Source: a bacterium (lineage in GTDB: Bacteria > Ratteibacteria > UBA8468 > B48-G9 > JAFGKM01). Taken from it: a stretch of DNA of 64,000 nt. The position numbers were made by a program, and so were the translations under genes. The stretch spans positions 22,060 through 86,059 of the forward strand of contig JALNXB010000003.1 of NCBI GenBank assembly GCA_023230585.1, written 5' to 3'. The notes beneath the pieces are model-generated. The model had not been told where the DNA came from. It did no database searches and saw only the letters and a list, made by a program, of their open reading frames with translations. Positions 8,763 to 51,476 of the stretch are shown here, piece after piece; the stretch's first letter is position 1, and each line of letters starts with the position of its first letter.

Positions 8763-8922
8763 TTTTCCACCCCCTTATCCTTAAAATCAGCCCAACAATT
8801 GTGAATACTGTGCTTAATACAACAACAATCCACCATGTTGCCCAATTTTTGTCCATATATCTCCTTTGTCCCGTTTGTTACGAAAGTTTTAAGAAAAAAC
8901 GTCACAAGGTGTAATTAGTTTA

Positions 8923-9363: not shown

Positions 9364-9410
9364 CTCCTCCTATTGCTCATATTTTAAGGTGTTTGAAAGA
9401 TTTTTGTTTT

Positions 9411-31557: not shown

Positions 31558-31615
31558 TAGCAACTCCTTAAAATTAGAAACCCCTCCTAAATACACTTTT
31601 TTATAATAAAACAAG

Positions 31616-31689
31616 TACCCCTGGCCCGATTCGAACAGGCGACACACGGTTTAGGAAACCGTTGCTCTATCCATCTGAGCTACAGGGGC
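31616..31689 (-). tRNA. tRNA-Arg (anticodon CCT)
   Basis: The reverse complement reads GCCCCTGTAGCTCAGATGGATAGAGCAACGGTTTCCTAAACCGTGTGTCGCCTGTTCGAATCGGGCCAGGGGTA. It has a cloverleaf with a D-arm GCTC/GAGC, an anticodon stem ACGGT/ACCGT with loop TTCCTAA (anticodon CCT), and a T-arm GCCTG-TTCGAAT-CGGGC. A 7-bp acceptor stem has a G1:U72 wobble. No encoded CCA. Confidence 0.8.
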
Positions 31690-31799: not shown

Positions 31800-32030
31800 T
31801 ACAGATAGAAACGAAGGTTATTCCTCGGAGGTACTCGGACAAGACACAGTAGGAGAGGAATGTAAAGATTGTCCCTTATATGTCATTCCGGATTTATCCC
31901 AGCTTTTGCCTTCTACCCTTGGGGGAGAGGGATTAAGGGTGAGGGGGCTATAGAGAGGTTAATGGGATGAGTTTTATCCCTCGGGGATACTCTGGACAAG
32001 TCGCCGAAGGCGAAAAGGGATTGGGACATC
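31800..32030. repeat. Modular intergenic repeat, copy R5 (reverse-complement orientation)
   Basis: gggctatagagaggttaatgggatgagttttatccctcggggatactctggacaagtcgccgaaggcg is the reverse complement of modules B and D. tatgtcattccggatttatcc is an A-like module. Immediately downstream of the tRNA. Confidence 0.6.
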
Positions 32031-34692: not shown

Positions 34693-34902
34693 TTATATCT
34701 TAATAGTAAGCTTCTTGCGTGAATTTGCGATATTTTTCCAAGATATTTCGTTTTCATGTGCTAAGCGATCTAATACAATATCAACGCTTATTCTATGACT
34801 CTTAGCAAAGTTTACGACTTCTTGTTTGTTAGAGTTTTGTAAATAGTCATCATCTTTAGTGGTAGCGAGGATTTCACTTACTATTTTTATAGAAAACCTC
34901 AA
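34693..34902 (-). other. Small ORF (69 aa) carrying a methyltransferase-tail-like block; probable gene remnant
   Basis: Contains ILATTKDDDYLQNSNKQ, encoded by a ~55-nt segment (34821-34875) that is nearly identical to 37878-37933 inside the frameshifted MTase tail ORF. The rest of the ORF is unrelated. Confidence 0.3.
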
Positions 34903-35378
34903 AAAAGAATACCCCCGCGGTGTTCATCCCATTTAGCAAGCTGAATTTTGCGATTAGTCATATACTCAAGCATGTCTTCACGCTGATATTTATTTATAAT
35001 ATTGTTTAAATGCACACTTAACCCTTGGGGAGATATCAGAATTGCTTGTGAAGGTCTTACAAGCTTTGAATAGACAAGGATTTGAGCAAGATGAGAAAAG
35101 TTTAAAGCTCCATATTTCACCTCTATAAATATCAATCCATACTTGTCTTTTTCTTTTACAACGCCTAATAAATCAATTTTGATTTTATATGTAGGATAGT
35201 CCGGAAAGTTTTTTCGAAACGTAGTTTTTGTAAAAAAATCGCTCAAGTAGATGTTATGAACATCATGAACCGTAACCTCAGCATTCCGATTCTTATTTTG
35301 CAGATAATCACAAAACCATTTTTTCATCGGTACATATAAAACAATCTCTCGTTTGGAAGTGTTTCCCTGCCTATTCAT
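34899..35378 (-). CDS. PD-(D/E)xK nuclease-fold candidate protein
   Basis: 159 aa. IDLLGVVKEKDKYGLIFIEVKYG gives a D...E-V-K arrangement typical of restriction-endonuclease-like folds. No further family assignment is possible by eye. Confidence 0.35.
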   Translation of the reverse strand: MNRQGNTSKREIVLYVPMKKWFCDYLQNKNRNAEVTVHDVHNIYLSDFFTKTTFRKNFPDYPTYKIKIDLLGVVKEKDKYGLIFIEVKYGALNFSHLAQILVYSKLVRPSQAILISPQGLSVHLNNIINKYQREDMLEYMTNRKIQLAKWDEHRGGILF

Positions 35379-35624: not shown

Positions 35625-36259
35625 TTATTTGATGTTCTTTCGCCCAAAAACCCTTTGCTTTTTTTGTTCAGGATCTCTAAAATTCGGATGTCCAAAATCT
35701 ATAGTATGTATTGGCATTTCAATGTTATATAACAACTTAGCTAAATCAGCAATAAGCAACCAATTTCTCTGATCTGCTTCCAAATATATACGATGTTGAT
35801 CTTCTTTTCCAAAAGCAGCATTAGATTTTCTGATATGTCCAGTTGTATCAAAGTATCTCCTTAAAAATTCTTTTTGTATCTCTTTGTCAGCTTCAAAAAT
35901 TGTTCTTGGAATTCTAAAGGAATGAAAATCCGTAAATTCATCATTCAAAAGATATTTTAAGATTAGCCATGATAAATCCTCTCTATGCCAAGTAATTATT
36001 AACGATACATCGTTTTTATTACGATTCTCTTTAGCAAGATCAAGACTATATTTACGTATTCTATTTACGACTACATCTAAGCTATTTTATAACTCCAAAG
36101 GCTTATTGTATACATCTTTATAGCTTTTAGCAACTAAATTTTTATATGGAAAAGTAATTACCAAGCGCCATATTTGTCCTTCCTTAACAAAAATCCCTTT
36201 CCCCACAATAAGCCCTAAAAGATACGCTATGTCCTCGTTAAGAAAATCAGCAAATTATA
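35625..36259 (-). pseudogene. Degenerate double-motif LAGLIDADG homing-endonuclease-like gene with internal stop
   Basis: The reverse-strand reading frame gives ...FADFLNEDIAYLLGLIVGKGIFVKEGQIW...KPLEL*NSLDVV...KEFLRRYFDTTGHIRKS.... The two blocks YLLGLIVGKGIF and FLRRYFDTTGHI match LAGLIDADG motifs 1 and 2, but the catalytic acidic residues are replaced (K, T). An in-frame TAA lies at about 36096. Only the distal 107 codons (35625..35948) appear as an ORF in the track. Confidence 0.45.
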
Positions 36260-36388: not shown

Positions 36389-37768
36389 TTACTCTATTAA
36401 CTTATAACCTAACCATTTTTCAAAAATTTCTTTATTTTCAACTTTTAATTTTTTAGATTGATACATTTTAGAATAAATTGCTTTAATCTCTGAAATATCC
36501 TCGCTTGTTAATAATCTTTTTTCGAACATCTGATACAATGTATCAGAAATTTTATTTGTTAAAATTAAGGACCTAACATTGGAAATTCTTTCAATAAGAA
36601 AAAATATTTCTGGCTCAGAAATTGACTTGCCTTTGGACCATTGAAAGAAATATTTGAGTGCCTCTGTAATACCATTTACTCTGTTTTCGAAGCGAACTGA
36701 AGATAAGTAAATTTCCAATATTTCTTCTTTTGAACATACTTTTTCAAACCACAGAGCTAAAATTATTTCAACTATTTTTCGCCTAAAAGTTTTATTCATT
36801 TCTTTTATGAACAATGTTCTAACTAATTGCTGAGTAATAGTTGAACCTCCTGAACGACGTTTTTTTCCTATAATACCTAAAATAGCTCTTGCGATTGCTT
36901 TTATGCTAATTCCTTTATGTTTATAAAAACCACGATCTTCGATGAATATTAGATTTTTTTTAAATACTGTTAAATCAATTTTCATACGTTGAGTTTCATA
37001 CACTGCTAATTTAGCTCTGTAGATTACGTATTCAAAATCTTTTACAAGTCCTAAATGAAAACAACTAGCAAGTCTTTTAGCAAGACTTAATACTAATCTT
37101 TCATTTGTATCGTATAATGCGAAACGAAAAGAGAAAGAAATTACAATGACCCACAACATAAGAAAAATAGCAGCAAAGGTTATTTGATTACTTGGAGATG
37201 ACATAATACTAGATAATGAAACGAAATTTTTGATTATATGTGGCAAAATTCCATACAAAAGAATGGTCGAAGTTACACAAATTAGCCAAAAGGGATATGT
37301 AACATACGAAAACCAGCCAGGAAAAAGCTTTATGGCAAATGGATTAGTGGCTCCCTCTATTCTCCAATTAGGTAAAACTAAGTGCTGGGTGCCATAATAC
37401 AAACCTAGCATGTGTCTTAAAATGACAATTTTTCTTGAATCAAAAATTATTGACTTTTGCCTCTCTGCAAAATATCTTACCGTTAACCAAGAAAAAGAAC
37501 AAATTATAAATGTAAGAATTAATAACGTTTGTGTTGATAACGCACCATTAAAAAATTTAGTAGGATTGTGGAGAAAACTTACAGCTATTGAACCGAGCAT
37601 AGCAGATATTACGAGGATAAAATTTGCTGCGTTTAAAAATATTCGTTCTTGAGATTGAATATTTGCGGCACAATTTTCATATTCCTTAAGCAAAATATCT
37701 CTATCCGTAAATTTAGAAGCTGGATAATATTGTTGCCAATCAGCTTCTTTCTCTTTTAATTTGGTCAT
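36389..37768 (-). CDS. Polytopic membrane protein with C-terminal GT51 peptidoglycan-glycosyltransferase (transglycosylase) domain
   Basis: 459 aa. The N-terminal ~230 aa hold at least 6 predicted TM helices. The C-terminal part carries the diagnostic GT51 motifs EDRGFYKHKGISIKAIARA (EDxxFxxHxG) and GGSTITQQLVRTLF (GGSTITQQ), plus RRKIVEIILALWFE and EILEIYLSSVRF...ISEPEIFFL. It lies in an accessory/defense context, not in a cell-wall cluster. Confidence 0.6.
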   Translation of the reverse strand: MTKLKEKEADWQQYYPASKFTDRDILLKEYENCAANIQSQERIFLNAANFILVISAMLGSIAVSFLHNPTKFFNGALSTQTLLILTFIICSFSWLTVRYFAERQKSIIFDSRKIVILRHMLGLYYGTQHLVLPNWRIEGATNPFAIKLFPGWFSYVTYPFWLICVTSTILLYGILPHIIKNFVSLSSIMSSPSNQITFAAIFLMLWVIVISFSFRFALYDTNERLVLSLAKRLASCFHLGLVKDFEYVIYRAKLAVYETQRMKIDLTVFKKNLIFIEDRGFYKHKGISIKAIARAILGIIGKKRRSGGSTITQQLVRTLFIKEMNKTFRRKIVEIILALWFEKVCSKEEILEIYLSSVRFENRVNGITEALKYFFQWSKGKSISEPEIFFLIERISNVRSLILTNKISDTLYQMFEKRLLTSEDISEIKAIYSKMYQSKKLKVENKEIFEKWLGYKLIE

Positions 37769-37773
37769 AAATT

Positions 37774-37956
37774 TTAGGTTGAAGATTCATTTTCGATGGT
37801 TTGGATTTCTTCTTCGGTTAGGTCGTGGAGTTTATAGACAAGTTGGTCGATTTGTTTTTCGTATTCTTTAACTTTTGCTTGTTTGTTAGAGTTTTCTAAA
37901 TAGTCATCATCTTTAGTAGTAGCAAGGATTTTAGAATTATTCAAATCAATCTTCAT
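37774..37956 (-). other. Displaced C-terminal tail of the adjacent methyltransferase gene (separated by a +1 frameshift)
   Basis: The 60-aa ORF ends ...EKQIDQLVYKLHDLTEEEIQTIENESST. This is the canonical C-terminal tail of type IIG/Eco57I/PglX-class MTases (...IDrLVYeLYgLTeEEIkiVE). Its start overlaps the MTase stop (37946), and the frames differ by one nucleotide around ggaaatgaagattgattt (rc). Confidence 0.5.
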
Positions 37957-40900
37957 TTCCTAATAACCTAAACTCTAGTTCATAATTTTTTACAAATCTC
38001 AATTCTTCTTGACTAAGCCCATACAGGGGCGCAATGTAATCATCGATTCCATCAATATATTTTTTTGATTTGCTTATTTTATACTCCTTGAAGGAATCTA
38101 TATTTGCATAATTCCTTGTTGTTCTTATGCGCGCATTTTCTTCAACGCTTTTTAGATAAGTGACGTATAACTCTTTAATTTTTTTGATATTTTCCTTGCT
38201 TATTTTATTTAGGGGAATTGGAAATGATTCAACCTCGTACGATTTTAGATTTAAGTTATCGGAATAAATCTGATAAAACCAAAAAAATAAATTACTACTT
38301 AAAATTGCCCCCACAATGTCAGCTATCTCACTATCAAAACATATTTTTCTTTCCGCGGAAGAACCCGTAGAGTAGTTCGTAACGACTTTGAAATATCGCC
38401 CTCCAGCAAAACGATAATATATTGGTTTACCGCTGTCGTTTAAAAGATCTTTAATTTTTATTTTTAATTTGAGCAATTTTTTCAACATATCGATTTCGAT
38501 AGGTAAGCCAATTTTAGGATACCTTCCTCTAAGCTTATAATCTTTTACGTCTATAAATTGAAGGTTCTTCAATAAGTTAGCTAAATCAAATCTTTTTCCT
38601 TTCCTATACATTTTTGTTGTCATAATCTGCTCATTTCTTGCAAGCGTCTTAATAAAAAAAAGAATAGCTGTATTTACAACAGAATTTTCAAATATAGGCT
38701 GTGGTCTAACAGCGTAAGATGAAATTTTGATAATCCTGCAGTTTTCTTCCAAAAGTTCGTGTATATTTGCCATCGAATCGCTAGAAGTTATAGATATCGG
38801 TAATATGAAATTGAGACTGCCATTCTTTATTAGAATATTAAAGCCCATTTCAGTAAATATGACAAAGGTATCTGTAGAACCCCTTTGTCCTTCATAAGTT
38901 TTTGTGCTTTTATAGCGCATTTTAAAGAACTCTTTTTCCTGATTCGAATATTTAGCTCCATACGGCGGGTTTCCAATAACTATATCAAAACCACCTTTTT
39001 CAAAGACTTCTGCAAAGTAGAGTTTCCAGAGGAAAAACGGTCGTGTTTTATTCTTGCTGGTAAATTCTCGAAGTTGTTTTTCTATATTTTCTAAATCAAA
39101 GCCGGTTTTTTTAGAAAGTTTTTGTTTTTCTTTCGATATTTGTTCTTCGCGTGTTTTCTTGTTAGGAAGTATCTCATATTTCCTTTCAATGTCTTCTATT
39201 TGTCTAAAATAACCTGCTTTCTGTTTTTTTATTTTTGATTCAAAGATTTTTATCATCAAATCTTCCACTTCTTGTTTTAATTTATTTTTTTTATGTCTGT
39301 CGGATTCATTTTGAAAATCAAATTTCTTTTGCTCAAATTCTTTAATAATAGAGTCTGCCTTTTCTTCAAATCCCAACCCTGTCTGCTCTTTTTCTTCTCC
39401 GTTTTCTTTATCAAAATCTATCCCAAGAAATTCAGAAATCAGACTATTGCCCTGCATAATTTTAAAATCAAGGTTTGGCAATGCTTCAATCCCATAGTTT
39501 TCTTTTGTTTCATCAATTTTTTCATCTACAAGAAGAGAAATGAAGAAGCGTAGTTTAGTTATTTCTACAGCGATTTGCTGAATATCCACGCCGTAAATAC
39601 ATTTTTGTATTAAGTATAGTTTACGTCCATAGTCAGCATTTTTGTCTTTGAAGAATTCTTCAATCTGCTGTTTTGCAATTTTGCTGACCTGTAGGTCTGG
39701 TATTTTATTTGCGGCTGCGAGTTGTGCCTGTTTCCATAATTCGTTGTCAGGGTCAATTTTACCAAGGATAAATACCATCTTGTTAAGTGCGCCCATTGGA
39801 AAAGCACCTGAACCCACAGCCGGGTCAACAATTCTAACGCTTTCAATTAGTTCCGCAAGTTCTTTAGATTCAGATTTATTAAAAGGGTTTTCCTCTTTTT
39901 CTTTTGAAAACAAGGTGTCAAGTTTCCCGTCAATATTGTCTATTTCTGAAAGGTGTGTCTTGAAATACGCTTTAAGCGATTCTACAACCATATAATCAAC
40001 AATTTCTCTTGGAGTATAATAACTGCCGGTAGCTTTGCGAGCGGTAGTGGATGTCTCAGGATTAAAACTTGCCAGAAGATTTTCAAAAACCCTGCCCAGA
40101 AGTTCTGGGTCAAGAGCAATATCTGCATCGTCTGGAGAGTTTTCGTCAATAGTAAAGTTAAATGAAGATAAAATATTCAAAAGTCCCTGTACCTTATAGT
40201 TCTTGTTTTTAGTACCATAATCAGAGTTTAAGTCAATATTTTGCTCATCGCTGAAGAATAGAAAATTCGGGACACTCGGTTGATATTCTTGTTTTCTTTC
40301 AGTAAAACCATCTATGTAAATATCATTTGTACCATCATCGAGACAGTCAAACAGCCCACCGTTAAGAAACGGAATATTTCCAAAATATTCTTCCATTTTT
40401 TCAGAGTTTGTAAAAAGGTCATGGTAACGATATACGTATTGATTGCTGAAATCGGGATTATATCCTTTATACCCACGTATTTCGCTTCTGAACTGTCGTT
40501 CGCCTTTTTTGGTATTTAAGGTAGCGAAAAACAGGTTTTGCAAGATTGCCCGATAGTAAGTTGAATCGTCAGAATCAATGTTTTTAAGAATTCCATTGAT
40601 ATTTTCTTTTTCAAACAGTTCTTTTGGCATCAAACCTTTTTCCCGCATAAACCAGATAAAAATCATTCTTGTTATTAGCCGGATAATAGCAACATTCCTA
40701 CCATTATCTTCTACCTCGGCATCCTTGGGGAATCTGGAATTCTTAACCGCCCAGAAATACCAGTAAGCTATATCTTGGTAAAATTCCTTAGTAACCTTTT
40801 CTACAGAAAAAATTTCCTTAATTTTTTCCAGAGAAGAAAAATTACCTTCAGAAATTCTTTGAAGAAATGTTTTATTTGTAAGATCTTTACTTACAAAATA

Positions 40901-41287
40901 GGTAAAGCGGCGGAAAGCGCTCCAATCACGACGTTTACCCAGATAGTTTGCGTAGATTAAACTGAAACGAAAGTTGCCATTTTTATCATAAAAAATAAAA
41001 ATACCTGCATCGGTCTGGGTCTCTTTAAGGATTTTCTTACCCAGTTCATACTGTACTTTTTTCCCTGCTCTTTCTGTTAGAGGTTTTTTAACAGGCAACG
41101 AACATACTATTAGGTTTCCATCTTCAAAATCAATTTCTTCCAATTTGGTGCCCTGTCCGAAGTTATCATCCTCGTGACGCAGAGACTCATTGGGATGGCG
41201 GAATTTATCATTCGCCTCACGAAAAAACCTTATGAATTTTTCTTCATTAAAATTGTTAATAATATCCTGGAGAATTTGTCTTTTCAT
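37946..41287 (-). CDS. Gamma-class N6-adenine DNA methyltransferase with N-terminal helical domain and C-terminal target-recognition region (type IIG/PglX-like)
   Basis: 1113 aa. AdoMet motif I is DPAVGSGAFPMGAL. Catalytic motif IV is IVIGNPPYG, with a long coiled-coil insertion between motifs I and IV. The N-terminal region carries ...ILQNLFFATLNT...RYHDLF...IPFLNGGLFD, blocks typical of Eco57I/MmeI/PglX-type enzymes. The C-terminal ~300 aa is TRD-like. The start overlaps the stop of the PLD-SNF2 gene by 4 nt. Confidence 0.75.
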   Translation of the reverse strand: MKRQILQDIINNFNEEKFIRFFREANDKFRHPNESLRHEDDNFGQGTKLEEIDFEDGNLIVCSLPVKKPLTERAGKKVQYELGKKILKETQTDAGIFIFYDKNGNFRFSLIYANYLGKRRDWSAFRRFTYFVSKDLTNKTFLQRISEGNFSSLEKIKEIFSVEKVTKEFYQDIAYWYFWAVKNSRFPKDAEVEDNGRNVAIIRLITRMIFIWFMREKGLMPKELFEKENINGILKNIDSDDSTYYRAILQNLFFATLNTKKGERQFRSEIRGYKGYNPDFSNQYVYRYHDLFTNSEKMEEYFGNIPFLNGGLFDCLDDGTNDIYIDGFTERKQEYQPSVPNFLFFSDEQNIDLNSDYGTKNKNYKVQGLLNILSSFNFTIDENSPDDADIALDPELLGRVFENLLASFNPETSTTARKATGSYYTPREIVDYMVVESLKAYFKTHLSEIDNIDGKLDTLFSKEKEENPFNKSESKELAELIESVRIVDPAVGSGAFPMGALNKMVFILGKIDPDNELWKQAQLAAANKIPDLQVSKIAKQQIEEFFKDKNADYGRKLYLIQKCIYGVDIQQIAVEITKLRFFISLLVDEKIDETKENYGIEALPNLDFKIMQGNSLISEFLGIDFDKENGEEKEQTGLGFEEKADSIIKEFEQKKFDFQNESDRHKKNKLKQEVEDLMIKIFESKIKKQKAGYFRQIEDIERKYEILPNKKTREEQISKEKQKLSKKTGFDLENIEKQLREFTSKNKTRPFFLWKLYFAEVFEKGGFDIVIGNPPYGAKYSNQEKEFFKMRYKSTKTYEGQRGSTDTFVIFTEMGFNILIKNGSLNFILPISITSSDSMANIHELLEENCRIIKISSYAVRPQPIFENSVVNTAILFFIKTLARNEQIMTTKMYRKGKRFDLANLLKNLQFIDVKDYKLRGRYPKIGLPIEIDMLKKLLKLKIKIKDLLNDSGKPIYYRFAGGRYFKVVTNYSTGSSAERKICFDSEIADIVGAILSSNLFFWFYQIYSDNLNLKSYEVESFPIPLNKISKENIKKIKELYVTYLKSVEENARIRTTRNYANIDSFKEYKISKSKKYIDGIDDYIAPLYGLSQEELRFVKNYELEFRLLGNED

Positions 41288-44200
41288 AATTTTTGATTTT
41301 CAATAGCAACAATAATTTCTTTAGTTAAATTCTTTTGTTGGAATTTCTCTCTTTCAAGATAATCAGCACCAAGTTTATCTTTCAAAGCATAGATTTCTTT
41401 GAGAGATTGGTTAAGTTGTTTTTCTGTGCTGCTTTCAAAGTTGGCTATCCTTCGCAATGTATAATCCGGCAATGTGCCATAATCGGTAATATCTTCAAGC
41501 AGTACTTTTAAGAAATTTTTTACCAGTTGTATTTCTTCTGTATGGTTTCTATATATAAGTGTCTTAAGGTTGTTCTTGGCTTGTTCTTCCAAACTTCGTT
41601 CAGTTGGCGGTCCTACTCTGTGATCCCTGAAGTTTTTTATACTTTCATAAGCACTCCAAAACTTTGCTCCGAGTTCTAACGGTTCTTCGTCAGGTTTACA
41701 CAGAATTTTATTGTAGGATTCTTCAAAAGTTGCCTGAAAAAAGGTATCTTTCTCTTCCTGCTTGTATATGGTTCCATGAATATACAGTCTGCCTTTTTTA
41801 AGAAAGACCAATAGTTCATCTGTATCAGCTTTTTTTGCCACTTTTATACGTGGAGGGAAAGTTTCCAAAGCAGCAATTAGACCTGGATTTTCTTTTTTTA
41901 TTCTTATAAACTCTTTTAAAGCCTTTGTATAAAAACTTTCTTCTTCCAGTTTGTCGGGATTTTGTTGCATTTTGTTATATAATTTGGCAGGAGACGGTTC
42001 TTCGTCAATAGCAAATATTTTAGAATCTTCACCGAGAGTATTATGAATCAAAAACATTTTATTGCTGGCAATCTCCCTTGCTTGTACCAATTCTGCCCCC
42101 TGTTCAGTAGGAAAGAAGTTGACGATAAAAAGTTTGTCAAACACTTTTTTACTTATTCGGTTGATACGTCCCAACCGTTGAATAATGCGAACAGGATTCC
42201 ATGGAATATCATAATTGATGACAATACCAGAACGGTTTAGGTTAAAACCTTCTGAAATTTTATCTGAAGATAACAAGATATCAAAATCATCTTTCTGTTC
42301 AGAGAAGGAAGCGTCAAAATTTGTGTTTATTGCAGATAGGTTTTTTGCTGTCAGGTCACCAGCAATAACCAGCAACCTATCGCCAAAGACTTTTTTAATA
42401 TGTGGTTCAAGATATTTCACTGTATCAAGATATTCGGAAAAGATAACAATTTTTCTGTTGGGCTCTTTTTTTAGTTGAGATTCAAGGTTTTTAATCAAAC
42501 AAGATGTCTTGGGATCATTTCTGACCAGATTAAATTTATTCAGAGAATCAAGAATTTCATTGAAAAGCTTCAGGTCAGATTTTATGTCTTCTATAAATTC
42601 ATCTCTATACTTAAAGTCAGCCAGTTTATAAACTTTATGGTTTTTAGGATACTCGCCTGCGTTGATTTTTTTCGTATATTCGTCCAGATGTTCTTCAATC
42701 TCTTCTGGTTCTTTGTCGTATATTCGTTCAAGCAAACTTCTATCCAGTATATATTTGCCTGTTCGCTCAATGAATGTTAAGACTGATTCAGCAATACGTT
42801 TGAAGTTTTTAAGACTTTGTTCAAAGGAGCCGAACGAACTTTCAAATCTTTTTACCAGCAACCGGCGCATAAAATCGTATAGATTACGTTGGGAATAAAA
42901 TTCAAAATTTTCTTTATCAGACAGTTTTTCTCCCACAATTTTTTCTTTTGCCGTTTCGTATTCAAAAGGCCTGTAAATCGCTCCCTTAAACATTCCGCCG
43001 TTATCAGGGTCGCCAAAGTATAATTTGATTACATTGTCATAAAGAACAGATTGTTCCTTTGTCAGTTCAAAGAACCATTCTTTAGGGTCGGCAACCTTAG
43101 ACAGATTTTTTACTTCTTTGTTATAATCTGGGTTTTCTTCCAAATCTAAACGATTGCGTCGAATAGTTACGGGTTCTATAACATCTCGTATCTGTTTTGC
43201 CAGATATTTTGAACGTCTTGCTACTTTTTCCAAACCAGAGACAACATCAAATTTTTCTCCAAAAAATGTTTTGTAATCACTATGTGCTTTACTACGTTTT
43301 TGCTGGTTTGTTGCATTCCAGTGTTTCTTGATATAACCGAGTCGGTCAAAAGAACCTTTGAAAGACTTGAAGCGATCAACAAGACTGTTTTCCATGGTTA
43401 TTGATGATTTCTTTGGAGTGATAAATAGTTTGAGAAGTGATAAAATGTCACCTGGGCGGTTGTTGAACGGAGTAGCAGTAAGAAGCATTACTAATTTGTT
43501 ACGACAGATATTTTTTAAATATTCATAACTCTCCGTATCTTGGTTTCTGAACCGATGTGCTTCGTCAACTATAACAACCTCTACATCTTTGGTTTTCTTT
43601 ACAAATTCCTGAAGTTTTTCCAAATCACCGAGAGACCATACCTCCCAGTCATATAAACCAAATTGCTCTTTATACATATTCCAGCCGGAATCTTTTTTTC
43701 TGGGGTCTCCCATAATACCGGGCGGGCAGATTATTACTCCTCTTTTCCGCAATTCTTTGGCAACGGAACAAGCAATAATAGTTTTACCCAGCCCTACAAC
43801 GTCAGCAAGAATAACACCATTGTTGTTTTCTATTATTGCTAATGCTTGGCGAATAGCATCCAATTGATATTGATAAGGTATATAGCCGTTGTCTTCGAGA
43901 GTTTTGATAAGAGATTGCCCAATTTCTCTTTTTTCAAAAGAATCAAGGTATATTTTCAGAATAAGAACAAACGCTTCAAATGGAGTGATTTTTTTGACTA
44001 GGGTTTCTTTTTCAACAAGTTCTATCAATCTTTTCTTAAGATCTGTATTTTCGGTAATTTTGACCGCTTCGTTCCATAAGGTATCATAGTATTCTTCAGC
44101 ACTTTCAAAACCGTAATCGCTGATTTCAACGTTAAACTCTTCTTGAGTAGTAAGCCCTAAACCTGTAAGGTTACTGCTACCGGTGATGAAGAGATTTTGG

Positions 44201-44649
44201 CGTCCTACCTGCTCATCCTGCAATTTGAATATGTATAGTTTCGCATGGTTAGGATGGAAGGTCTTTCTTATAATGAGCCGATTACTTTTTATAAGGTCCA
44301 TAAAAAACTTGACTTGTATGTAAAATTCTTTGGTGTCAAACTTTTCAGTGTTAATGGATTTTTTTATGGATTCAAAAAACCTTTGGCTTATTTCTTCATT
44401 AGATAAACGACCGCTGTGATCATCTAAATCAGCATACTCAACCAATTGAAAATTTAATTTATCAACATTGAGACCAACCAGGACTTTAAGTATTACTTTG
44501 GGGTTTTGCTTGAGTTCAGAGCAAAGTTCCCTTATACCAGAGAAATAAAAAAAACCGACCAAAAATTTTAATTCATCACTTTTGCTTATCAGTTTAACCA
44601 GTCGTTTTTTTAGGTTTTCTGCACCACTATTGGTTATGAAATTTTTCAT
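41284..44649 (-). CDS. PLD-family nuclease domain fused to SNF2-family (SF2) helicase/ATPase
   Basis: 1121 aa. The N-terminus has a single PLD HKD-type motif HAKLYIF...ITGSSNLT (HxK...GSxN). The SNF2 motifs are motif I ADVVGLGKTIIA, motif II VVIVDEAHRFRN (DEAH), motif III LLTATPFNN and motif VI IIQRLGRINR. The 3' end overlaps the MTase start (translational coupling). Confidence 0.75.
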   Translation of the reverse strand: MKNFITNSGAENLKKRLVKLISKSDELKFLVGFFYFSGIRELCSELKQNPKVILKVLVGLNVDKLNFQLVEYADLDDHSGRLSNEEISQRFFESIKKSINTEKFDTKEFYIQVKFFMDLIKSNRLIIRKTFHPNHAKLYIFKLQDEQVGRQNLFITGSSNLTGLGLTTQEEFNVEISDYGFESAEEYYDTLWNEAVKITENTDLKKRLIELVEKETLVKKITPFEAFVLILKIYLDSFEKREIGQSLIKTLEDNGYIPYQYQLDAIRQALAIIENNNGVILADVVGLGKTIIACSVAKELRKRGVIICPPGIMGDPRKKDSGWNMYKEQFGLYDWEVWSLGDLEKLQEFVKKTKDVEVVIVDEAHRFRNQDTESYEYLKNICRNKLVMLLTATPFNNRPGDILSLLKLFITPKKSSITMENSLVDRFKSFKGSFDRLGYIKKHWNATNQQKRSKAHSDYKTFFGEKFDVVSGLEKVARRSKYLAKQIRDVIEPVTIRRNRLDLEENPDYNKEVKNLSKVADPKEWFFELTKEQSVLYDNVIKLYFGDPDNGGMFKGAIYRPFEYETAKEKIVGEKLSDKENFEFYSQRNLYDFMRRLLVKRFESSFGSFEQSLKNFKRIAESVLTFIERTGKYILDRSLLERIYDKEPEEIEEHLDEYTKKINAGEYPKNHKVYKLADFKYRDEFIEDIKSDLKLFNEILDSLNKFNLVRNDPKTSCLIKNLESQLKKEPNRKIVIFSEYLDTVKYLEPHIKKVFGDRLLVIAGDLTAKNLSAINTNFDASFSEQKDDFDILLSSDKISEGFNLNRSGIVINYDIPWNPVRIIQRLGRINRISKKVFDKLFIVNFFPTEQGAELVQAREIASNKMFLIHNTLGEDSKIFAIDEEPSPAKLYNKMQQNPDKLEEESFYTKALKEFIRIKKENPGLIAALETFPPRIKVAKKADTDELLVFLKKGRLYIHGTIYKQEEKDTFFQATFEESYNKILCKPDEEPLELGAKFWSAYESIKNFRDHRVGPPTERSLEEQAKNNLKTLIYRNHTEEIQLVKNFLKVLLEDITDYGTLPDYTLRRIANFESSTEKQLNQSLKEIYALKDKLGADYLEREKFQQKNLTKEIIVAIENQKL

Positions 44650-44855: not shown

Positions 44856-45104
44856 TTATGTGCTAAGGGAAGAAATGTTTGAAATGATTTTATCGGCGAA
44901 TTTAAGTGCAGTAGTTCCTTGTGCTTCTATAGCTACAGACCAACTTTTATAATAATCTGCTTTTACTCGCAAATCTTTGAGACGATCTAAATTTATTCCG
45001 ACCTCTCTTTTCTTTATATCACTACTTAAACAAAATTCATTACTAACAAATAAATGGCTATTTATTGAGGGAATAATTTCGCCTTCTTTATCTTTTCCTC
45101 TCAA
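44856..45104 (-). CDS. Small hypothetical protein (82 aa), possibly a HEPN-like fragment
   Basis: Isolated ORF in a 600-bp gap between the defense genes and the GH42-like gene. It carries LRVKADYY, weakly resembling R-x4-H/Y HEPN-type motifs. Too short for a confident call. Confidence 0.2.
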   Translation of the reverse strand: MRGKDKEGEIIPSINSHLFVSNEFCLSSDIKKREVGINLDRLKDLRVKADYYKSWSVAIEAQGTTALKFADKIISNISSLST

Positions 45105-45267
45105 GGGTAGAAAGCAAAAGTGTAAAGGAGAAGGATTTTTTAGTACTTGAATAGGGAATACGGAAGCGTTTTATTTTTCTTAGTTTCTTTATAAACTATT
45201 AGTATCTTTTAGTAATAAATAGTAATATAATAGATATCATTCCAGCCCGTTAAACAATGGAGGGAAA

Positions 45268-48147
45268 ATGAAATATATACAGCAACTTGAACCTGAACCA
45301 CCTCAACCTGAAGAAAAAGATTGGGGATTTATTAAAATTCTAAGTGAACCTCTACATCAACCTTTCAAATGGAAAAGACTCAAAGCAAAGGAGAGAGAAG
45401 CCTCTCTTAAATACGGAGTCAAAATCATCAACAAGTTCCCTGATAAAGAAGGATTGCTAGAAACTGCATTTGAAGATTTTAAGAGGTTTTTTGAATGCGG
45501 AGAAATATCTGTAGAAGGTACCTTTCCCATTGTTATAAAAAAAGTTAAAACATCTACATTTGAAGAGTATATTATCCTTATTAAAAAAGATAAAATAGAA
45601 GTGCAGGCAGGGGATACTGAGGGGATAAGGAGAGGATTGGTATATCTTGAGGACGAACTTTTGCGTTCGGGAGGACCTTTTCTCAAGTATGGTAAAATAA
45701 AGCGCACCCCTGTTATAAAAACTCGTATATCAAGATGTTGTTACGGACCTATAAACCGCCCTCCTAAAAATAGGGATGAACTTAATGATGATATAGACTA
45801 CTACCCAGATGAGTATCTCAACAGACTCGCTCATAATGGAGTAAACGGGTTATGGTTAACGATTACTTTCGCAGATACTGTTCCCTCTAAAATCATACCT
45901 GAATATGGCAAAAACTCAGAAAAACGGCTCAAAAAATTAAGGGCTACTGTTGACAAATGTAGGCGTTACGGAATAAAAATTTACCCTTTCTGTATTGAAC
46001 CAATAGCTTTTGCTATAGGTGACCCTATGATAAAAAAATATCCTGAACTTCAAGGGCACAACAATAATGCTTTTTCTTATTTCTGCACTTCTACTGATAA
46101 AGGGAAAGCATATATAAAAGAATCAATATACAACTTATTTAGTAGCGTTCCTAACCTTGGAGGTCTCATAAATATTTCAGTAGGAGAACGACCTACAAAC
46201 TGTTATGCAGGTACCTCGTTAAATAATAACTGTCCTTTATGTAGTAAAAGGGAGCCGGCAGAGGTTGTTTCCGAAATGCTTTCTATTATGGCAAAAAGTA
46301 TGCATAAAGCCAACCCTTCAGCCCAACTGATTTCTTGGCATTACAGTCAGTACGTAGGTTGGGGCGAAAAAGCAACAGAAGAAGCTGCTGGTAAAATGCC
46401 AAAAAACATTGTTCTTCAATTTAACTTTGAGTCTGCAGGGAGAACAGAACAACTCGGTAAGGTAAGATATGCAGGGGATTACTGGCTTTCTTATGTAGGA
46501 CCAAGCAATCTATTCAAAAAATGTGCTATAAATGCAGTCAAAGCAGGGACACCTATTTTTGCTAAAATACAGGTAAGTTGTTCGCATGAAGTGGCTACTG
46601 TACCTTGGATTTCAGTCCCGAGTTACCTCTACCGTAAATTTAAATCTATGCATAAATTAGGCGTTACCGGGGTAATGGAATGCTGGTTTTTTGGAGCATA
46701 CCCAGGGCTTATGACAAAAGCAGCAGGAGAACTTTCGTTTGCGCCGTTCCCAAAAAATGAAGATGTTTTTTTAAAAAAACTGGCAGGTTGCTGGTGGCAA
46801 GCAGATACTGCAAAAACTGTTGAAGCGTGGGAATTGTTTAGAGACGCTTATTCCAATTACCCAGTAAACGCTATGTTCGGGTATTATGGACCAATGCACG
46901 ACGGACCTGTATGGCCACTACATCTGAAACCACAAAACAAGCCTCTTGCTCCCACCTATCTAATAAATTACCCGCCAAGCGGAGACAGAATAGGGCAGTC
47001 TTTCACTTTTACTCACACCATCCCTGAAATATTGAGTTTATGCAAAAATATGTCTGAAGAGTGGAATAAAGGTGTAAAAATATTAAAAAAAGAGTTGGTT
47101 AAAAATCAAGGCAACATTGATATTGAAGAAAAGTTGAGGGTAGATGAAGCTCTCGGAATACAGTTTGAGAGCGGGTACCATATTCTTAGGTTTTATGACC
47201 TACGTGAAAAACTTTTTGAGATGGAAGGTCTAAAGCGGTTAAATATTCTCAAACAGATGAAACAGATTGTAGTTGATGAACTTGATAGAAGCAAACAACT
47301 TTTAGAACTTACAAAAAAAGACCCTCGTTTGGGTTTTCACGCAGAAGCTGAAGGTTATAAATATTTTCCTGAAAAAATTTTATGGAGGATGAAGTGGCTT
47401 GAACAAGTTCTTAAAGAAGATTTTCCTTATGTAGAAAAAGAAATTAAAAAAGGTAACTTGTTGTTCCCTGAATATACGGGTAAAAAACCTCCACCTCCTG
47501 TTTATAGATGCAAGGAAATCTCTAAAACAATCAGAGATAAAACTGAATCTATAATTGACAACCTCCTTGAAGAAAACCTGCCTTTCTGGTTCTATTTTGA
47601 TAAGACAAAAAAAGAGTTTAAACCTGAAACTGGTAAATTTGTGCAGAAATATAAGACTTTCTGGAAGGCTTTTTGCATTGAAGATGCTCTAAATTTTATT
47701 GTCAAATGCCAGACACCAAATATAGCAACTCTACAAGTAAAAGGGAAGCAAGAGTTTGAGTATATTGAAACTGTTCAAATACAGATAGAGACCAGACGGC
47801 TCTTCCCTCCTTCTAATTTCGTTGTTGATTCTAAAGGAGAGAAAAATTTAAGAAATATTGCTCACGGAAATTACACCCAAAAAGATTCTTTATGGAATGT
47901 TACAGTTAAGGTAGAAAACGACTCTTGGACTGCTTTTTTTCGAATACCTTACAAGTGTTTACCTCATACAAGCGATAGGTACAGGTTAAATATCGTTAGA
48001 GGTGTATCAAAAAAAGAAGGAGAAAGAGGACTTTTTAAAAGTTATATAAACAAGTGGATAGATTACAAAACACTTCCAAAAAATTTACTTGCTTTTGGCA
48101 GAGAAGACCCTGCTTACAATTTCGGTTGGTTGATAAAAGATGAATAG
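45268..48147 (+). CDS. GH42-like glycoside hydrolase (TIM barrel with Cys-rich Zn-site-like motif) with N- and C-terminal extensions; C-terminus CBM9-like
   Basis: 959 aa with no signal peptide. DYYPDEYLNRLAHNGVNGLWL resembles the GH42 N-terminal YYPE.W......G.N.V block. FSYFCTSTDKGKAYIKE and NCYAGTSLNNNCPLCSKREPAEVV line up with the GH42 Cys-cluster (HYCFSSP.../C....CYCPRCQ). The C-terminal W/Y-rich block resembles the CBM9-like domain of the 1401-aa protein. Confidence 0.4.
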   Translation: MKYIQQLEPEPPQPEEKDWGFIKILSEPLHQPFKWKRLKAKEREASLKYGVKIINKFPDKEGLLETAFEDFKRFFECGEISVEGTFPIVIKKVKTSTFEEYIILIKKDKIEVQAGDTEGIRRGLVYLEDELLRSGGPFLKYGKIKRTPVIKTRISRCCYGPINRPPKNRDELNDDIDYYPDEYLNRLAHNGVNGLWLTITFADTVPSKIIPEYGKNSEKRLKKLRATVDKCRRYGIKIYPFCIEPIAFAIGDPMIKKYPELQGHNNNAFSYFCTSTDKGKAYIKESIYNLFSSVPNLGGLINISVGERPTNCYAGTSLNNNCPLCSKREPAEVVSEMLSIMAKSMHKANPSAQLISWHYSQYVGWGEKATEEAAGKMPKNIVLQFNFESAGRTEQLGKVRYAGDYWLSYVGPSNLFKKCAINAVKAGTPIFAKIQVSCSHEVATVPWISVPSYLYRKFKSMHKLGVTGVMECWFFGAYPGLMTKAAGELSFAPFPKNEDVFLKKLAGCWWQADTAKTVEAWELFRDAYSNYPVNAMFGYYGPMHDGPVWPLHLKPQNKPLAPTYLINYPPSGDRIGQSFTFTHTIPEILSLCKNMSEEWNKGVKILKKELVKNQGNIDIEEKLRVDEALGIQFESGYHILRFYDLREKLFEMEGLKRLNILKQMKQIVVDELDRSKQLLELTKKDPRLGFHAEAEGYKYFPEKILWRMKWLEQVLKEDFPYVEKEIKKGNLLFPEYTGKKPPPPVYRCKEISKTIRDKTESIIDNLLEENLPFWFYFDKTKKEFKPETGKFVQKYKTFWKAFCIEDALNFIVKCQTPNIATLQVKGKQEFEYIETVQIQIETRRLFPPSNFVVDSKGEKNLRNIAHGNYTQKDSLWNVTVKVENDSWTAFFRIPYKCLPHTSDRYRLNIVRGVSKKEGERGLFKSYINKWIDYKTLPKNLLAFGREDPAYNFGWLIKDE

Positions 48148-49402
48148 AAGTAAAAAAGGAGTTTTTATGAACAATGTTTATAGAACAAGTATATTGTTGG
48201 TTTTTTTATTTATTATTTCTTCTTTTTCTTTTATATACTCAGAAAATATTGTTAAAACAGGGTTAGATGTAATAAAAGAGAACCCTCCAGATATAATTAA
48301 GGGCAAAAATATTGGTCTTATAACAAACTATACTGCAGTTGATAATGAGATGAGGAGTGCTTTAGATGTAATATCTAACTTAAAGGATGTAAATATAGTG
48401 GCTGCCTATTCTCCAGAACACGGGTTTACTGGGGGCAAAATGGGGCATATAGATAACTCAGAAGACAAAAAAAGAGGTGTTCGAATTTTCAGTCTACACG
48501 GTAATACAAAAATCCCAACAAAAGAGATGTTAAAAGGTGTTGACCTTCTGATATTTGATATTCAAGATATAGGGGTACGTTCATACACATATATTTCAAC
48601 TATGAAAAACTGTATGGTGGCAGCAACCAAAAATAGAATACCCTTTGTTGTTCTTGACAGACCTAATCCGCTCGGAGGAATTGTGGTTGACGGTCCTGTT
48701 TTAGATATGTCGTTTGCTTCTTTTATAGGAGCCGGTCCCATAGCTTATGTTCATGGGATGACAATTGGAGAGATCGCTCTTTTTTTTAATACAGAACTTA
48801 AGATAAAATGTAACCTAACAGTTGTTCCTATGGTAGGGTGGGAAAGAAGAATGGATTGGCAAGATACAAAACTCAACTGGATACCTACCTCACCTCATAT
48901 ACCAGAAAACGATACCCCTTTATTTTACGCTACAACAGGAATTTTGGGAGAAACTCCTCTTGTAAATATAGGTGTGGGGTATACCCTGCCATTTAAAATA
49001 GTAGGTGCGCCTTGGATAGACGCTGAATTAATTACTCAAAAACTTAATGAGAAAAACCTACCGGGAGTATCTTTTCATCCTTTCTACTTTACTCCTTTTT
49101 ATCATCATTATAATAAAAGTTTTTGTCAAGGGTTCAAGATAATTGTCACCAATAAAGAGGTTTTTATGCCTGTATCTACCGGTTATCATATAATCGAAAC
49201 TCTTATAAAACTATATCCTGAGGATTTTAAGATAGGACAACTTTCAAACAATATTGTTAAGATGTTTAACCAAGCAAATGGAACAGACAGGGTGTTAAAA
49301 ATGTTGCTGAATAAAGATTCAGCTGAGATGATAATAAAAAGTTATGAACCGAAACTTACCAGTTTTAAAGAAAAACGGAAAAAGTATCTTTTATATCAAT
49401 GA
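48140..49402 (+). CDS. namZ: DUF1343-family exo-beta-N-acetylmuramidase (NamZ-like)
   Basis: GLDVIKENPPDIIKGKNIGLITNYTAVDNEMRSALDVI...AAYSPEHGFTG...RIFSLHGNTKIPTKEMLKGVDLLIFDIQDIGVRSYTYISTM is a near-textbook DUF1343/NamZ signature. The N-terminal signal/TM segment suggests export. The start overlaps the upstream gene by 8 nt. Confidence 0.75.
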   Translation: MNRSKKGVFMNNVYRTSILLVFLFIISSFSFIYSENIVKTGLDVIKENPPDIIKGKNIGLITNYTAVDNEMRSALDVISNLKDVNIVAAYSPEHGFTGGKMGHIDNSEDKKRGVRIFSLHGNTKIPTKEMLKGVDLLIFDIQDIGVRSYTYISTMKNCMVAATKNRIPFVVLDRPNPLGGIVVDGPVLDMSFASFIGAGPIAYVHGMTIGEIALFFNTELKIKCNLTVVPMVGWERRMDWQDTKLNWIPTSPHIPENDTPLFYATTGILGETPLVNIGVGYTLPFKIVGAPWIDAELITQKLNEKNLPGVSFHPFYFTPFYHHYNKSFCQGFKIIVTNKEVFMPVSTGYHIIETLIKLYPEDFKIGQLSNNIVKMFNQANGTDRVLKMLLNKDSAEMIIKSYEPKLTSFKEKRKKYLLYQ

Positions 49403-50608: not shown

Positions 50609-51211
50609 ATGAGTTTAACAGAGAAACAACAAAAGATACTTGATTACATTAAAAAACAGATTCAAGAGAACGGCTACCCGCCCACAATACGAGAGATAGG
50701 TGAAAAATTCTCTTTATCTTCAACAGGTAGCGTTAGGGACCATTTAAAAGTTCTTAGTGACAAAAAATATATAGAACGTCTTCCTGGAATCTCACGAGGT
50801 ATTCGGTTACAGGATAAACCTTTACAATCTTCTTCTACTTCTATCCCCGTTGTAGGAAGGATTACTGCTGGCAAACCAGAACTTGCCATAGAAGATATTG
50901 AGGGCACAATATGCATAGATAAAAAACTTGTTGATAAAGGTACAACTTTTGCTTTAAAGGTTAAGGGAGATAGTATGATTGACGCAGGTATACAAGAAGG
51001 TGACTATGTAATTGTTAAACCTCAAAATGTATGTGAGCAGGGTGAAATTATTATTGCTTTGATTGAAGGTGAAGCCACAGTAAAAAGGTTCAAACGTAAA
51101 GGTAACAACCTTTTTTTACAACCAGCCAACCCTTCTTATGAACCAATAAAAATTGATGAAAGGGTCAAAATTATAGGTAAAGTAGTCGGTCTTATAAGGT
51201 ATTACAACTAA
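50609..51211 (+). CDS. lexA: LexA repressor (SOS response)
   Basis: The N-terminal winged-HTH is ...LTEKQQKILDYIKKQIQENGYPPTIREIGEKF. The C-terminal S24 peptidase domain carries the catalytic Ser in VKGDSMIDAGI and the Lys in GEATVKRFKRKGN. The autocleavage region PVVGRITAGKP holds the AG cleavage bond. Confidence 0.85.
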   Translation: MSLTEKQQKILDYIKKQIQENGYPPTIREIGEKFSLSSTGSVRDHLKVLSDKKYIERLPGISRGIRLQDKPLQSSSTSIPVVGRITAGKPELAIEDIEGTICIDKKLVDKGTTFALKVKGDSMIDAGIQEGDYVIVKPQNVCEQGEIIIALIEGEATVKRFKRKGNNLFLQPANPSYEPIKIDERVKIIGKVVGLIRYYN

Positions 51212-51226
51212 AAGGATAACCATAAA

Positions 51227-51475
51227 ATGATGGAAGAAATTATGGAAGAAATAGAGATAGAGGCACACTTTAGTAGCAACAAAATTAAACCAAAATGGTT
51301 CCTATGGAACAATAGAAAATATTATATAGATAAAGTAAACTATATCTGGCACAATAAAGACGGAGAAGAGGTTATCTACTATTTTTCAGTAGTTGTTGGT
51401 GCTAATCTTTATGAACTCTCTTTTTATACAAAAAAACTCAAATGGCTCTTAAGCAAGGTTTATATTGAGGGATAA
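51227..51475 (+). CDS. Small hypothetical protein co-transcribed between lexA and dinB
   Basis: 82-aa ORF with a good RBS spacing (aaaaggataacc). It abuts the dinB start. Family not recognised; YolD-like or other SOS accessory proteins are a possibility. Confidence 0.4.
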   Translation: MMEEIMEEIEIEAHFSSNKIKPKWFLWNNRKYYIDKVNYIWHNKDGEEVIYYFSVVVGANLYELSFYTKKLKWLLSKVYIEG

Positions 51476-51476
51476 A

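Follow-up and report, generated by a model that had tools for sequence, protein, structure and literature searches.

A PLD-SNF2 protein and its partner adenine methylase as a probable two-gene restriction-modification-like module in a Ratteibacteria bacterium

In the nucleases Nuc and BfiI, each chain carries one HKD motif, and an active site is built from two chains. The combination of a PLD dimer with an ATP-driven motor is an established design, known from SauUSI and from MtsD of the MANTIS (Gao_RL) system, the latter forming a dimer that has a single, composite PLD site (10.64898/2026.09.23.753747). SauUSI (type IV, PDB 7CLG) has a PLD head followed by an SF2 motor, dimerises via its PLD domains and cleaves DNA in an ATP-dependent manner (10.64898/2026.09.23.753747); it is autonomous, having its own modified-cytosine recognition domain and no partner methylase. 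MtsD likewise has an N-terminal HKD/PLD domain and an SF2 ATPase, and works with a specificity-bearing N6-adenine methylase; MANTIS requires a set of four proteins, among them the DUF499 AAA+ ATPase MtsA and a small protein, MtsB (DUF3780 according to PMC12839542, DUF3870 according to the MANTIS preprint, 10.64898/2026.09.23.753747). Type-2 BREX-related systems have as their standard effector an N-terminal HKD domain joined to a Swi2/Snf2 helicase (PMC12839542), and HKD-helicase fusions are regarded as components of type I/III-like restriction (PMC12839542, PMC10853773).

Gene pairs of the kind considered here have also been reported. Van Mastrigt et al. (2018, PMC6098607) described the pair on Lactococcus lactis pLd8 (orf33/orf34), found no restriction domain in the methylase and proposed the PLD protein as the cutter. 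Milman et al. (2023, PMC9881135) cited the NCBI CDD model cd09178 for exactly such a pair, a [quoted passage not shown]. No experimental or biochemical study of the two-gene module was found in the searchable literature.

We have analysed 64,000 nucleotides (the window) of contig JALNXB010000003.1 in assembly GCA_023230585.1 from a Ratteibacteria bacterium. We consider it probable that the two genes at 37946..44649 on the reverse strand form a self-contained, ATP-dependent restriction-modification-like defence module working by the mechanism proposed below. This reading starts from the domain content, the intact catalytic motifs in both proteins, the strict pairing of the genes and their context, all of which were observed directly. 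The same domains, gene order and adjacency, with a methylase lacking a recognisable nuclease, are found in the pLd8 and Milman pairs. Features of the locus are listed in Table 1.

Table 1. Features of the PLD-SNF2 and methylase locus, in window coordinates (R, restriction; M, modification; S, specificity).
Feature	Position	Strand	Basis
PLD-SNF2 protein gene, putative R subunit	41284..44649	-	ORF list, translation; Pfam/PADLOC/NCBIfam scans; homologues
Single-HKD PLD nuclease domain, residues 1-200 (predicted)	44050..44649	-	Pfam, invariant catalytic residues, compatible AF2 topology
HxK of PLD head (H135-K137)	44239-44247	-	
GSSN of PLD head (157-160)	44170-44181	-	
Swi2/Snf2 ATPase core, residues ~251-880: lobe 1, helical insert, lobe 2	42010..43899	-	Pfam, motifs, PDB matches
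GLGKT, residues 286-290, lobe 1	43780-43794	-	
DEAH, residues 362-365, lobe 1	43555-43566	-	
TATP, residues 391-394, lobe 1	43468-43479	-	
QRLGRINR (QRxGRxNR), residues 824-831, lobe 2	42157-42180	-	
Conserved C-terminal domain of R protein, residues ~881-1121	41287..42009	-	50-homologue alignment, AF2
ATGA overlap of R stop codon and methylase start codon, translational coupling	41284..41287	-	Read from sequence
Eco57I/MmeI-type N6-adenine DNA methyltransferase with fused target-recognition domain, 1113 aa, putative M+S subunit	37946..41287	-	
Methylase conserved N-terminal domain, residues 1-160	40808..41287	-	
Methylase motif I, DPAVGSGAF	39800-39826	-	
Methylase NPPY	38960-38971	-	
Methylase C-terminal target-recognition region, residues ~901-1113, rarer type in family	37949..38587	-	C-terminal comparison
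60-codon ORF just past methylase stop codon, called as gene on source contig	37774..37956	-	Translation

The PLD-SNF2 ORF starts with ATG and encodes 1121 aa, its coordinates from the ORF list and translation being exactly those of the first-pass annotation. The protein consists of a PLD region (residues ~1-200), the Swi2/Snf2 ATPase core (~250-880) and a conserved C-terminal domain. The order claimed in that annotation, in which a single-HKD PLD head precedes an SNF2 ATPase, is borne out by HMMs, motifs and homologues. Against Pfam, the full-length protein scores narrowly under the gathering thresholds (PLDc_2 24.5 bits, E 2.7e-5; RE_NgoFVII 23.2 bits), and the comparison of the N-terminal region with PLD models, which the annotation had put forward as a check, came out in its favour when the 235-aa head was taken in isolation (RE_NgoFVII 28.7 with cut-off 23.8; PLDc_2 27.8 with cut-off 27). 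Both models matched all 27 family members tested, with a best E of 3e-11. Residues H135, K137, G157, S158, S159, N160, E171 and N173 do not vary among 27 sequences that reach down to 31% identity, and the HxK...GSxN set is present in a single copy per polypeptide. The spacing within this set, on which the assignment might have failed, is longer than usual: K137 and G157 are separated by 19 residues versus about 11 in the textbook PLD motif, the extra residues fall in a loop whose length varies across the family, and the Pfam alignment crosses this loop unbroken. Lys142 stands in place of the canonical Asp of HxK(x)4D. In the AF2 model, the order of secondary structures is compatible with a PLD fold, but residues 146-180 have pLDDT below 50. 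Because a profile of the head gave no significant PLD nuclease among all PDB sequences (best relevant match Zucchini, E 0.87), the PLD assignment rests on Pfam HMMs and motif conservation, and by these HMMs and the signature the head is confirmed as a predicted nuclease domain of the HKD/PLD superfamily (Nuc, BfiI, NgoFVII type).

The earlier deduction that one HKD per chain calls for two chains per active site agrees with the textbook behaviour of Nuc and BfiI. It also agrees with the SauUSI and MtsD structures (10.64898/2026.09.23.753747). It is a reasonable inference that cleavage by PLD-SNF2 would depend on dimerisation and be coupled to translocation.

The motor is a true Swi2/Snf2 member of the SF2 ATPases. 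Pfam scores are 51.9 bits for SNF2-rel_dom (cut-off 24.9; E 7.5e-14) and 60.6 for Helicase_C (cut-off 23.5; E 2e-16). Motifs I, II, III and VI are intact, and their residues are invariant in 50 homologues save for spacer positions in TATP and QRxGRxNR. SsoRad54 tops the profile search against PDB sequences (E 3.7e-15). The Foldseek search with the full-length AF2 model, a mediocre one (pLDDT 71, pTM 0.50) whose result informs on the Swi2/Snf2 core only, placed RapA, CSB, Chd1, SRCAP, SMARCAD1, ISWI and SsoRad54 on top (E 1e-11 to 1e-9), with TM-scores kept low by the poor packing of the model's domains. The listed sequence and fold matches were of Swi2/Snf2 type, and the SauUSI motor was absent from them. 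In the C-terminal domain many residues are invariant in 50 homologues, and the AF2 model has a beta-sheet plus helices with pLDDT of about 70-90; this region could serve as a candidate contact surface for the methylase. The lack of a Pfam match in residues 881-1121 and the obligate methylase neighbour set the protein apart from the SauUSI type.

The fusion had been called unusual and uncommon in the first-pass annotation, and this part is not supported. More than 7900 matches were obtained at E <= 1e-10, and the best 120 of them were all full-length, with the same architecture and 67-81% identity, in many phyla. Since this identity extends across unrelated phyla and includes one archaeon, it points to horizontal spread. 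Among 1.84 billion cluster representatives searched, essentially every full-length match was a protein of ~1060-1220 aa with the head at residues 1-235, by which an ORF-calling artefact is ruled out. Family members carry the JGI label "superfamily II DNA or RNA helicase/HKD family nuclease", and the PADLOC "HKD+Snf2" model matches residues 85-883 of the present protein. The fusion is thus common and already covered by models and papers, and the copy in the window is an ordinary family member.

The link to the neighbouring methylase, which was also part of the earlier description, was upheld in every locus with sufficient DNA: in all 45 whose sequence continues for 2.5 kb or more past the R gene, the methylase is its immediate downstream neighbour. 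The 4-nt ATGA overlap recurs in 22 of 53 related loci. The pair is kept even at 25-32% identity, in Parabacteroides, on Synechocystis pSYSX and on Lactococcus pJM1F (25-26% identity to the window for the last). When ORFs of 71 loci were clustered, two genes were conserved (in 71 and 53 loci), and the next cluster was found in 6 loci. Three neighbours of the pair in the window, namely a multi-TM transglycosylase-domain ORF (36389..37768), an 82-aa ORF (44856..45104) and a 959-aa ORF (45268..48147), each occurred in none of the 71 related loci and were rejected as system components. The two-gene unit travels alone between phyla and onto small plasmids, and its surroundings are mobile and defence-island-like. 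A phage origin is unlikely: 50,697 phage records gave only nine weak matches, each spanning less than 80% of the protein.

The partner protein matches Eco57I (E 8e-28), N6_Mtase and MmeI_Mtase in Pfam and REase_MTase_IIG and DrmMI in PADLOC, and its methyltransferase and target-recognition domains share one chain, as in type IIG enzymes. The methylase might accordingly be read as a complete type IIG enzyme cutting with its own N-terminal nuclease, and PLD-SNF2 as a second defence or a restriction-enhancing helper, but we regard this as unlikely. The PADLOC and Pfam alignments begin near residue 295-470 and leave the N-terminal domain uncovered. Type IIG enzymes have an N-terminal PD-(D/E)xK endonuclease with conserved catalytic residues, whereas in 45 homologues of the present methylase this domain has neither an invariant Asp nor an ExK, and no conserved D...ExK. 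It weakly resembles restriction-endonuclease folds and is probably non-catalytic, possibly with such a fold; a cryptic nuclease in it is unlikely. The constant pairing with PLD-SNF2, with its start/stop overlap, and the Lactococcus orthologue without a restriction domain (van Mastrigt et al., PMC6098607) also speak against an independent type IIG enzyme. With no nuclease motif recognisable in the methylase, the restriction subunit is likely to be PLD-SNF2.

In the restriction-modification mechanism that we propose, the gamma-class Eco57I/MmeI-type methylase, itself lacking a recognisable nuclease, would read a short DNA site via its own target-recognition domain and mark host DNA by adenine methylation. 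PLD-SNF2 would be recruited or licensed by methylase sitting on unmethylated sites, and its Swi2/Snf2 motor would spend ATP to travel along double-stranded DNA. Two PLD-SNF2 copies would then join their single HKD half-sites into one PLD active site and cut, as in BfiI, SauUSI and MtsD. Methylase recruitment, translocation, PLD dimerisation and DNA cleavage in the module are all inferred by analogy. In MANTIS, no DNA cleavage was seen with purified MtsD in vitro, nor was a stable contact with the methylase complex detected (10.64898/2026.09.23.753747), so the coupling step may be indirect or need more factors.

Eco57I/MmeI-type methylases normally methylate DNA without a motor, and this weighs against a different assignment of roles, in which the ATPase would mainly serve modification by loading or activating the methylase in the manner of MtsA, with the PLD head acting as a dimerisation device or DNA clamp, or damaging self-DNA in abortive infection. 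ATP-dependent methylase loading is documented in MANTIS, and a suicidal mode of action for HKD-helicase fusions has been put forward (PMC10853773), but the invariance of the PLD catalytic set over wide divergence argues for chemistry rather than scaffolding, and we judge such a role quite improbable.

Class 1 DISARM resembles the window in having an SNF2 helicase, an Eco57I-like adenine methylase and a PLD nuclease, but there the PLD protein (DrmC) is separate, and DrmA and DrmB (DUF1998) are essential core genes that the locus lacks. Genes for DrmA/B/C, PglZ/BrxC, DUF499 and DUF3780 are conserved in none of the 71 loci and none was found beside the window pair, whose flanking ORFs have no DUF499 or MtsB domains; MtsA and MtsB of MANTIS are likewise conserved at none of these loci. 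Matches to DISARM, BREX, MANTIS/Gao_RL, Hma, Zorya and Dpd were partial helicase-lobe matches far under cut-offs with partner genes missing, and these systems were rejected. As no third gene is conserved, the locus falls outside DISARM, BREX and MANTIS/Gao_RL. That it is a reduced or partial class 1 DISARM, BREX type 3 or MANTIS/Gao_RL system with partners encoded elsewhere is very improbable: its best partial HMM matches are DrmD, BrxHI/II, DrmMI and PglX, and an N-terminal HKD with a Swi2/Snf2 helicase is a Type-2 BREX-related effector, but the scores (154.8 bits versus a cut-off of 610 for the DrmD model NF038317; 31 versus 400 for PglX; 97.7 versus 1100 for the PLD-helicase anti-phage model NF042964, which aligns with ATPase lobe 2 only and which we tentatively take to represent the MANTIS/Gao_RL group), the missing partner genes and the independent movement of the pair all count against it.

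Type III (EcoP15I) and type ISP (LlaGI/LlaBIII) enzymes share with the window pair an ATP-driven motor-nuclease and a methylase that holds the target-recognition domain; the sites are likely to be short, asymmetric and hemimethylated. Their nucleases are of PD-(D/E)xK or Mrr type, in contrast to the PLD nuclease and Swi2/Snf2 motor found here. Type III Mod is a beta-class methylase in mod-res gene order, whereas the order here is R then M, and type ISP enzymes are single polypeptides with an Mrr-type nuclease, whereas two separate overlapping ORFs are present in the window. It is possible, though doubtful, that the module represents a class of ATP-dependent restriction enzymes with a mechanism of its own, in which a chromatin-remodeller-type translocase of double-stranded DNA is licensed by a site-bound, nuclease-less, type IIG-like methylase and cleavage takes place only once two converging motors have assembled a composite, metal-independent PLD site. 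Such a class would stand to DISARM and MANTIS-type systems as their minimal, ancestor-like form, and would offer a simple model for the relay of methylation status to an SNF2 motor.

For annotation, the locus would be better described as a complete two-gene restriction-modification-like defence module than as an isolated "SNF2-related protein" next to a "type IIG enzyme". Its significance lies with the family, which is abundant, highly conserved and moves between phyla, and with nothing specific to the copy in the window. A two-protein module could be an easier model than the four- to six-protein MANTIS, DISARM and BREX systems for the handover of unmodified DNA from a methylase to an SNF2 motor-nuclease.

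Variable cargo is inserted at the R/M junction in 23 of 53 loci, and comprises YhcG/DUF1016, RhuM, Abi_2, AAA_14-DUF4143, nucleotidyltransferase and DUF3800 genes. Cargo of this kind is typically embedded in type I R-M operons.

The specificity end of the methylase is likewise variable. In most homologues the alignment spans only 74-80% of the query, and the end is of TaqI_C type instead. The Lactococcus and Milman pairs, which are only distantly related to that of the window, have their own invertible specificity cassette and invertase, whereas the window has a leftover tail only; neither an invertase nor an inverted cassette was found when an invertible specificity shufflon was sought in the window, and direct-repeat remnants were the only trace. 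The tail is encoded by the 60-codon ORF adjoining the methylase gene, which, by comparison with the C-termini of 40 homologues, specifies the usual methylase C-terminal end of the family (ILAxTKDDDYLxNSNKQAKVKEYEKQIDQLVYKL..LTEEEI). This ORF is probably left over from replacement of the specificity domain, and such swapping of specificity ends, with a leftover tail, is how restriction-modification specificity usually evolves.

The R gene, which encodes the putative restriction subunit, is one ORF of 1121 amino acids in the ORF list, and its coordinates agree with those of the first-pass annotation, which had described a single-HKD PLD head N-terminal to an SNF2 ATPase. When the R protein was scanned whole, PLDc_2 and RE_NgoFVII were matched on residues 125-199 at scores slightly under the Pfam cut-offs; the first 235 residues alone gave scores above both cut-offs, and both families were matched by all of 27 tested family members. 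Across 27 aligned heads, with identities as low as 31%, H135, K137, G157, S158, S159, N160, E171, and N173 are invariant, and each chain has a single HKD-type residue set. In this family, Lys142 stands at the textbook Asp position of HxK(x)4D, and the distance from K137 to GSSN exceeds the canonical spacing because a loop of variable length lies in between; residues 146-180 have low confidence in the AF2 model. A profile search of PDB with the head gave no PLD nuclease at a significant E-value. For the motor, SNF2-rel_dom and Helicase_C exceed the Pfam cut-offs, and GLGKT, DEAH, TATP, and QRxGRxNR are all found, with motif residues invariant across 50 homologues except for variable spacers in the last two. 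The nearest solved proteins by sequence profile and fold search (SsoRad54, RapA, CSB, Chd1, and ISWI) are all Swi2/Snf2. Because of the PLD matches, the conserved motifs, and these nearest relatives, the observation of both domains in one ORF was correct.

The annotation had also called the fusion unusual, and this part was not borne out. In a search of 5.8 billion proteins, more than 7900 matches were obtained at E <= 1e-10, and the best 120 of them are all about 1120 aa long with 67-81% identity and an identical domain set. These 120 come from Elusimicrobia, Patescibacteria, Nitrospirae, Omnitrophica, TA06, and other groups, and some are labelled "helicase/HKD family nuclease" by JGI. With the head as the only query, exhaustive searching by HMMER yielded 681 cluster representatives, of which 318 have E <= 1e-10; nearly all of the full-length ones measure 1060-1220 aa and carry the head at residues 1-235. 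A PADLOC model, "HKD+Snf2", covers residues 85-883. Judged by these comparisons, the fusion is an old, widespread, and fixed arrangement and therefore not unusual. In comparative genomics, HKD-helicase fusions are regarded as standard type I/III-like restriction components (PMC12839542, PMC10853773).

The neighbouring methylase, putatively responsible for modification and specificity, is an N6-adenine methyltransferase of the Eco57I/MmeI type. Its motif I and NPPY are both intact, and its start codon and the stop codon of R share the sequence ATGA. Gene context was compared among 71 related loci from species-representative genomes. A methylase homologue, which the annotation had proposed to tabulate, is directly downstream of R in 45 of the 45 loci whose sequence extends 2.5 kb or more past R. 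Clustering of flanking ORFs left only R and the methylase as conserved genes (71 and 53 loci; next cluster, 6 loci), and the pair is found at 25-32% identity in the cultured organisms Parabacteroides distasonis, Synechocystis PCC 6803 pSYSX, and Lactococcus cremoris pJM1F. The window's multi-TM transglycosylase-domain gene, 959-aa ORF, and 82-aa ORF at 44856..45104 are not conserved among the 71 loci and, on this gene context, are placed outside the system. One or two unrelated genes are inserted at the R/M junction in 23 of 53 loci, including YhcG/DUF1016, RhuM, Abi_2, AAA_14-DUF4143, nucleotidyltransferase (pairs), DUF3800, and DUF4062/Fic-like genes, and VapC in Synechocystis. The junction is an insertion hotspot in the related loci, e.g., L010:3517-4533, L021:10766-11809, L052:10743-11654, L002:13505-14668, L007:13413-14915, and L074:11406-12039. 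The same kinds of accessory cargo also occur within type I R-M operons.

Domain content, intact motifs, and obligate pairing are direct observations, and the reading with the most support is a restriction-modification-like system of two proteins that depends on ATP. The methylase would recognise and methylate a short site; at an unmethylated site it would license the PLD-SNF2 protein, which may then translocate along double-stranded DNA using ATP and cleave once two single-HKD heads pair as one active site. By analogy with BfiI, SauUSI, and MtsD, on which the licensing, translocation, and cutting steps are modelled, the annotation's dimer logic is likely, as one HKD is present per chain. MtsD forms a dimer with one composite PLD site by cryo-EM at 2.2 Å; in MANTIS, neither MtsD cleavage in vitro nor stable binding between MtsD and the methylase complex could be demonstrated (10.64898/2026.09.23.753747), and the coupling step is therefore the weak link of the mechanism. 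The two-gene module may turn out to be mechanistically distinct and may serve as a minimal system for studying methylation-gated SNF2 nucleases.

The locus is of the same operon kind as the pair on Lactococcus plasmid pLd8. Of that pair, van Mastrigt et al. 2018 (PMC6098607) noted a type IIG-like methylase with no restriction domain and probable cleavage by the PLD of the SNF2 protein next to it; Milman et al. 2023 list this kind as a "type II R-M CDS with an adjacent PLD (cd09178) + SNF CDS" (PMC9881135). The locus adds a member to an already described, predicted operon kind. MANTIS/Gao_RL was rejected because the locus has neither a DUF499 gene nor an MtsB-type small gene; SauUSI, because that enzyme brings a recognition domain of its own and lacks a methylase; type ISP, because it is a single polypeptide; and Hma, because it has a C-terminal PD-ExK nuclease. 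DISARM was rejected at 154.8 bits for the DrmD model versus a 610 cut-off, and DrmA, DrmB, and DrmC are neither conserved among the 71 loci nor found with the window's pair. BREX was also rejected.

The C-terminal specificity region of the methylase is swapped between homologues; the window's methylase has an end of a rarer type, and most family methylases end otherwise. The usual tail, …ILATTKDDDYLENSNKQAKVKEYEKQIDQLVYKLHDLTEEEIQTIE, is encoded by the 60-codon ORF, and a 54-nt copy of its start (94% identical) lies 3057 bp beyond the first. Together they look like a specificity-domain replacement scar with a 3-kb insertion between the copies. After the distant pair of L. cremoris pJM1F (L075), positions 8763-10230 contain a partial TaqI_C specificity cassette in inverted orientation together with an Mpi-family DNA invertase; this layout suggests that systems of this kind may switch specificity by phase variation.

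Features in and around the R-methylase locus
Feature	Position	Strand	Remark
tRNA-Arg(CCT) gene	31615-31689	-	left edge of block with IS, 3-kb segment, and R-M pair
Insertion sequence (IS)	32677-34630		perfect 21-nt terminal inverted repeats, 32677-32697 and 34610-34630
DDE_Tnp_1 transposase ORF	32801..34546		581 aa, inside IS
54-nt copy	34821-34874		
3-kb segment	34875-37877		between 54-nt repeats
ORFs without family match	34899..35378; 35625..35948	-	in 3-kb segment
459-aa protein	36389..37768	-	GT51 transglycosylase domain, no transpeptidase domain
60-codon ORF	37774-37956	-	immediately past methylase stop
Methylase gene	37946..41287	-	1113 aa, next downstream of R
R gene	41284..44649	-	PLD-SNF2 fusion
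959-aa ORF	45268-48147	+	divergent from R
NamZ exo-muramidase gene	48140..49402		start overlapped by 959-aa ORF
LexA repressor gene	50609..51211	+	first of three in row
82-aa ORF	51227..51475	+	between LexA and polymerase genes
Y-family DNA polymerase gene	51465..52700	+	last of three in row

The 3-kb segment has a G+C content of ~29% versus ~36%, holds three ORFs, all on the minus strand, and is not conserved beside the pair at the other related loci. The N-terminal half of its 459-aa protein has a multi-transmembrane appearance from sequence, and the architecture is odd for a peptidoglycan glycosyltransferase. An imperfect 35-nt inverted repeat (31903-31937 and 45086-45120; 77% complementary) encloses the entire 13-kb block; with the tRNA gene, it may mark a genomic island, or the repeat may be due to chance. 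Scans against Pfam, PADLOC, and NCBIfam gave no match for the 959-aa ORF, and its overlap with NamZ suggests a link to cell-wall recycling. The row of three genes from LexA to the polymerase looks like an SOS mutagenesis cassette.
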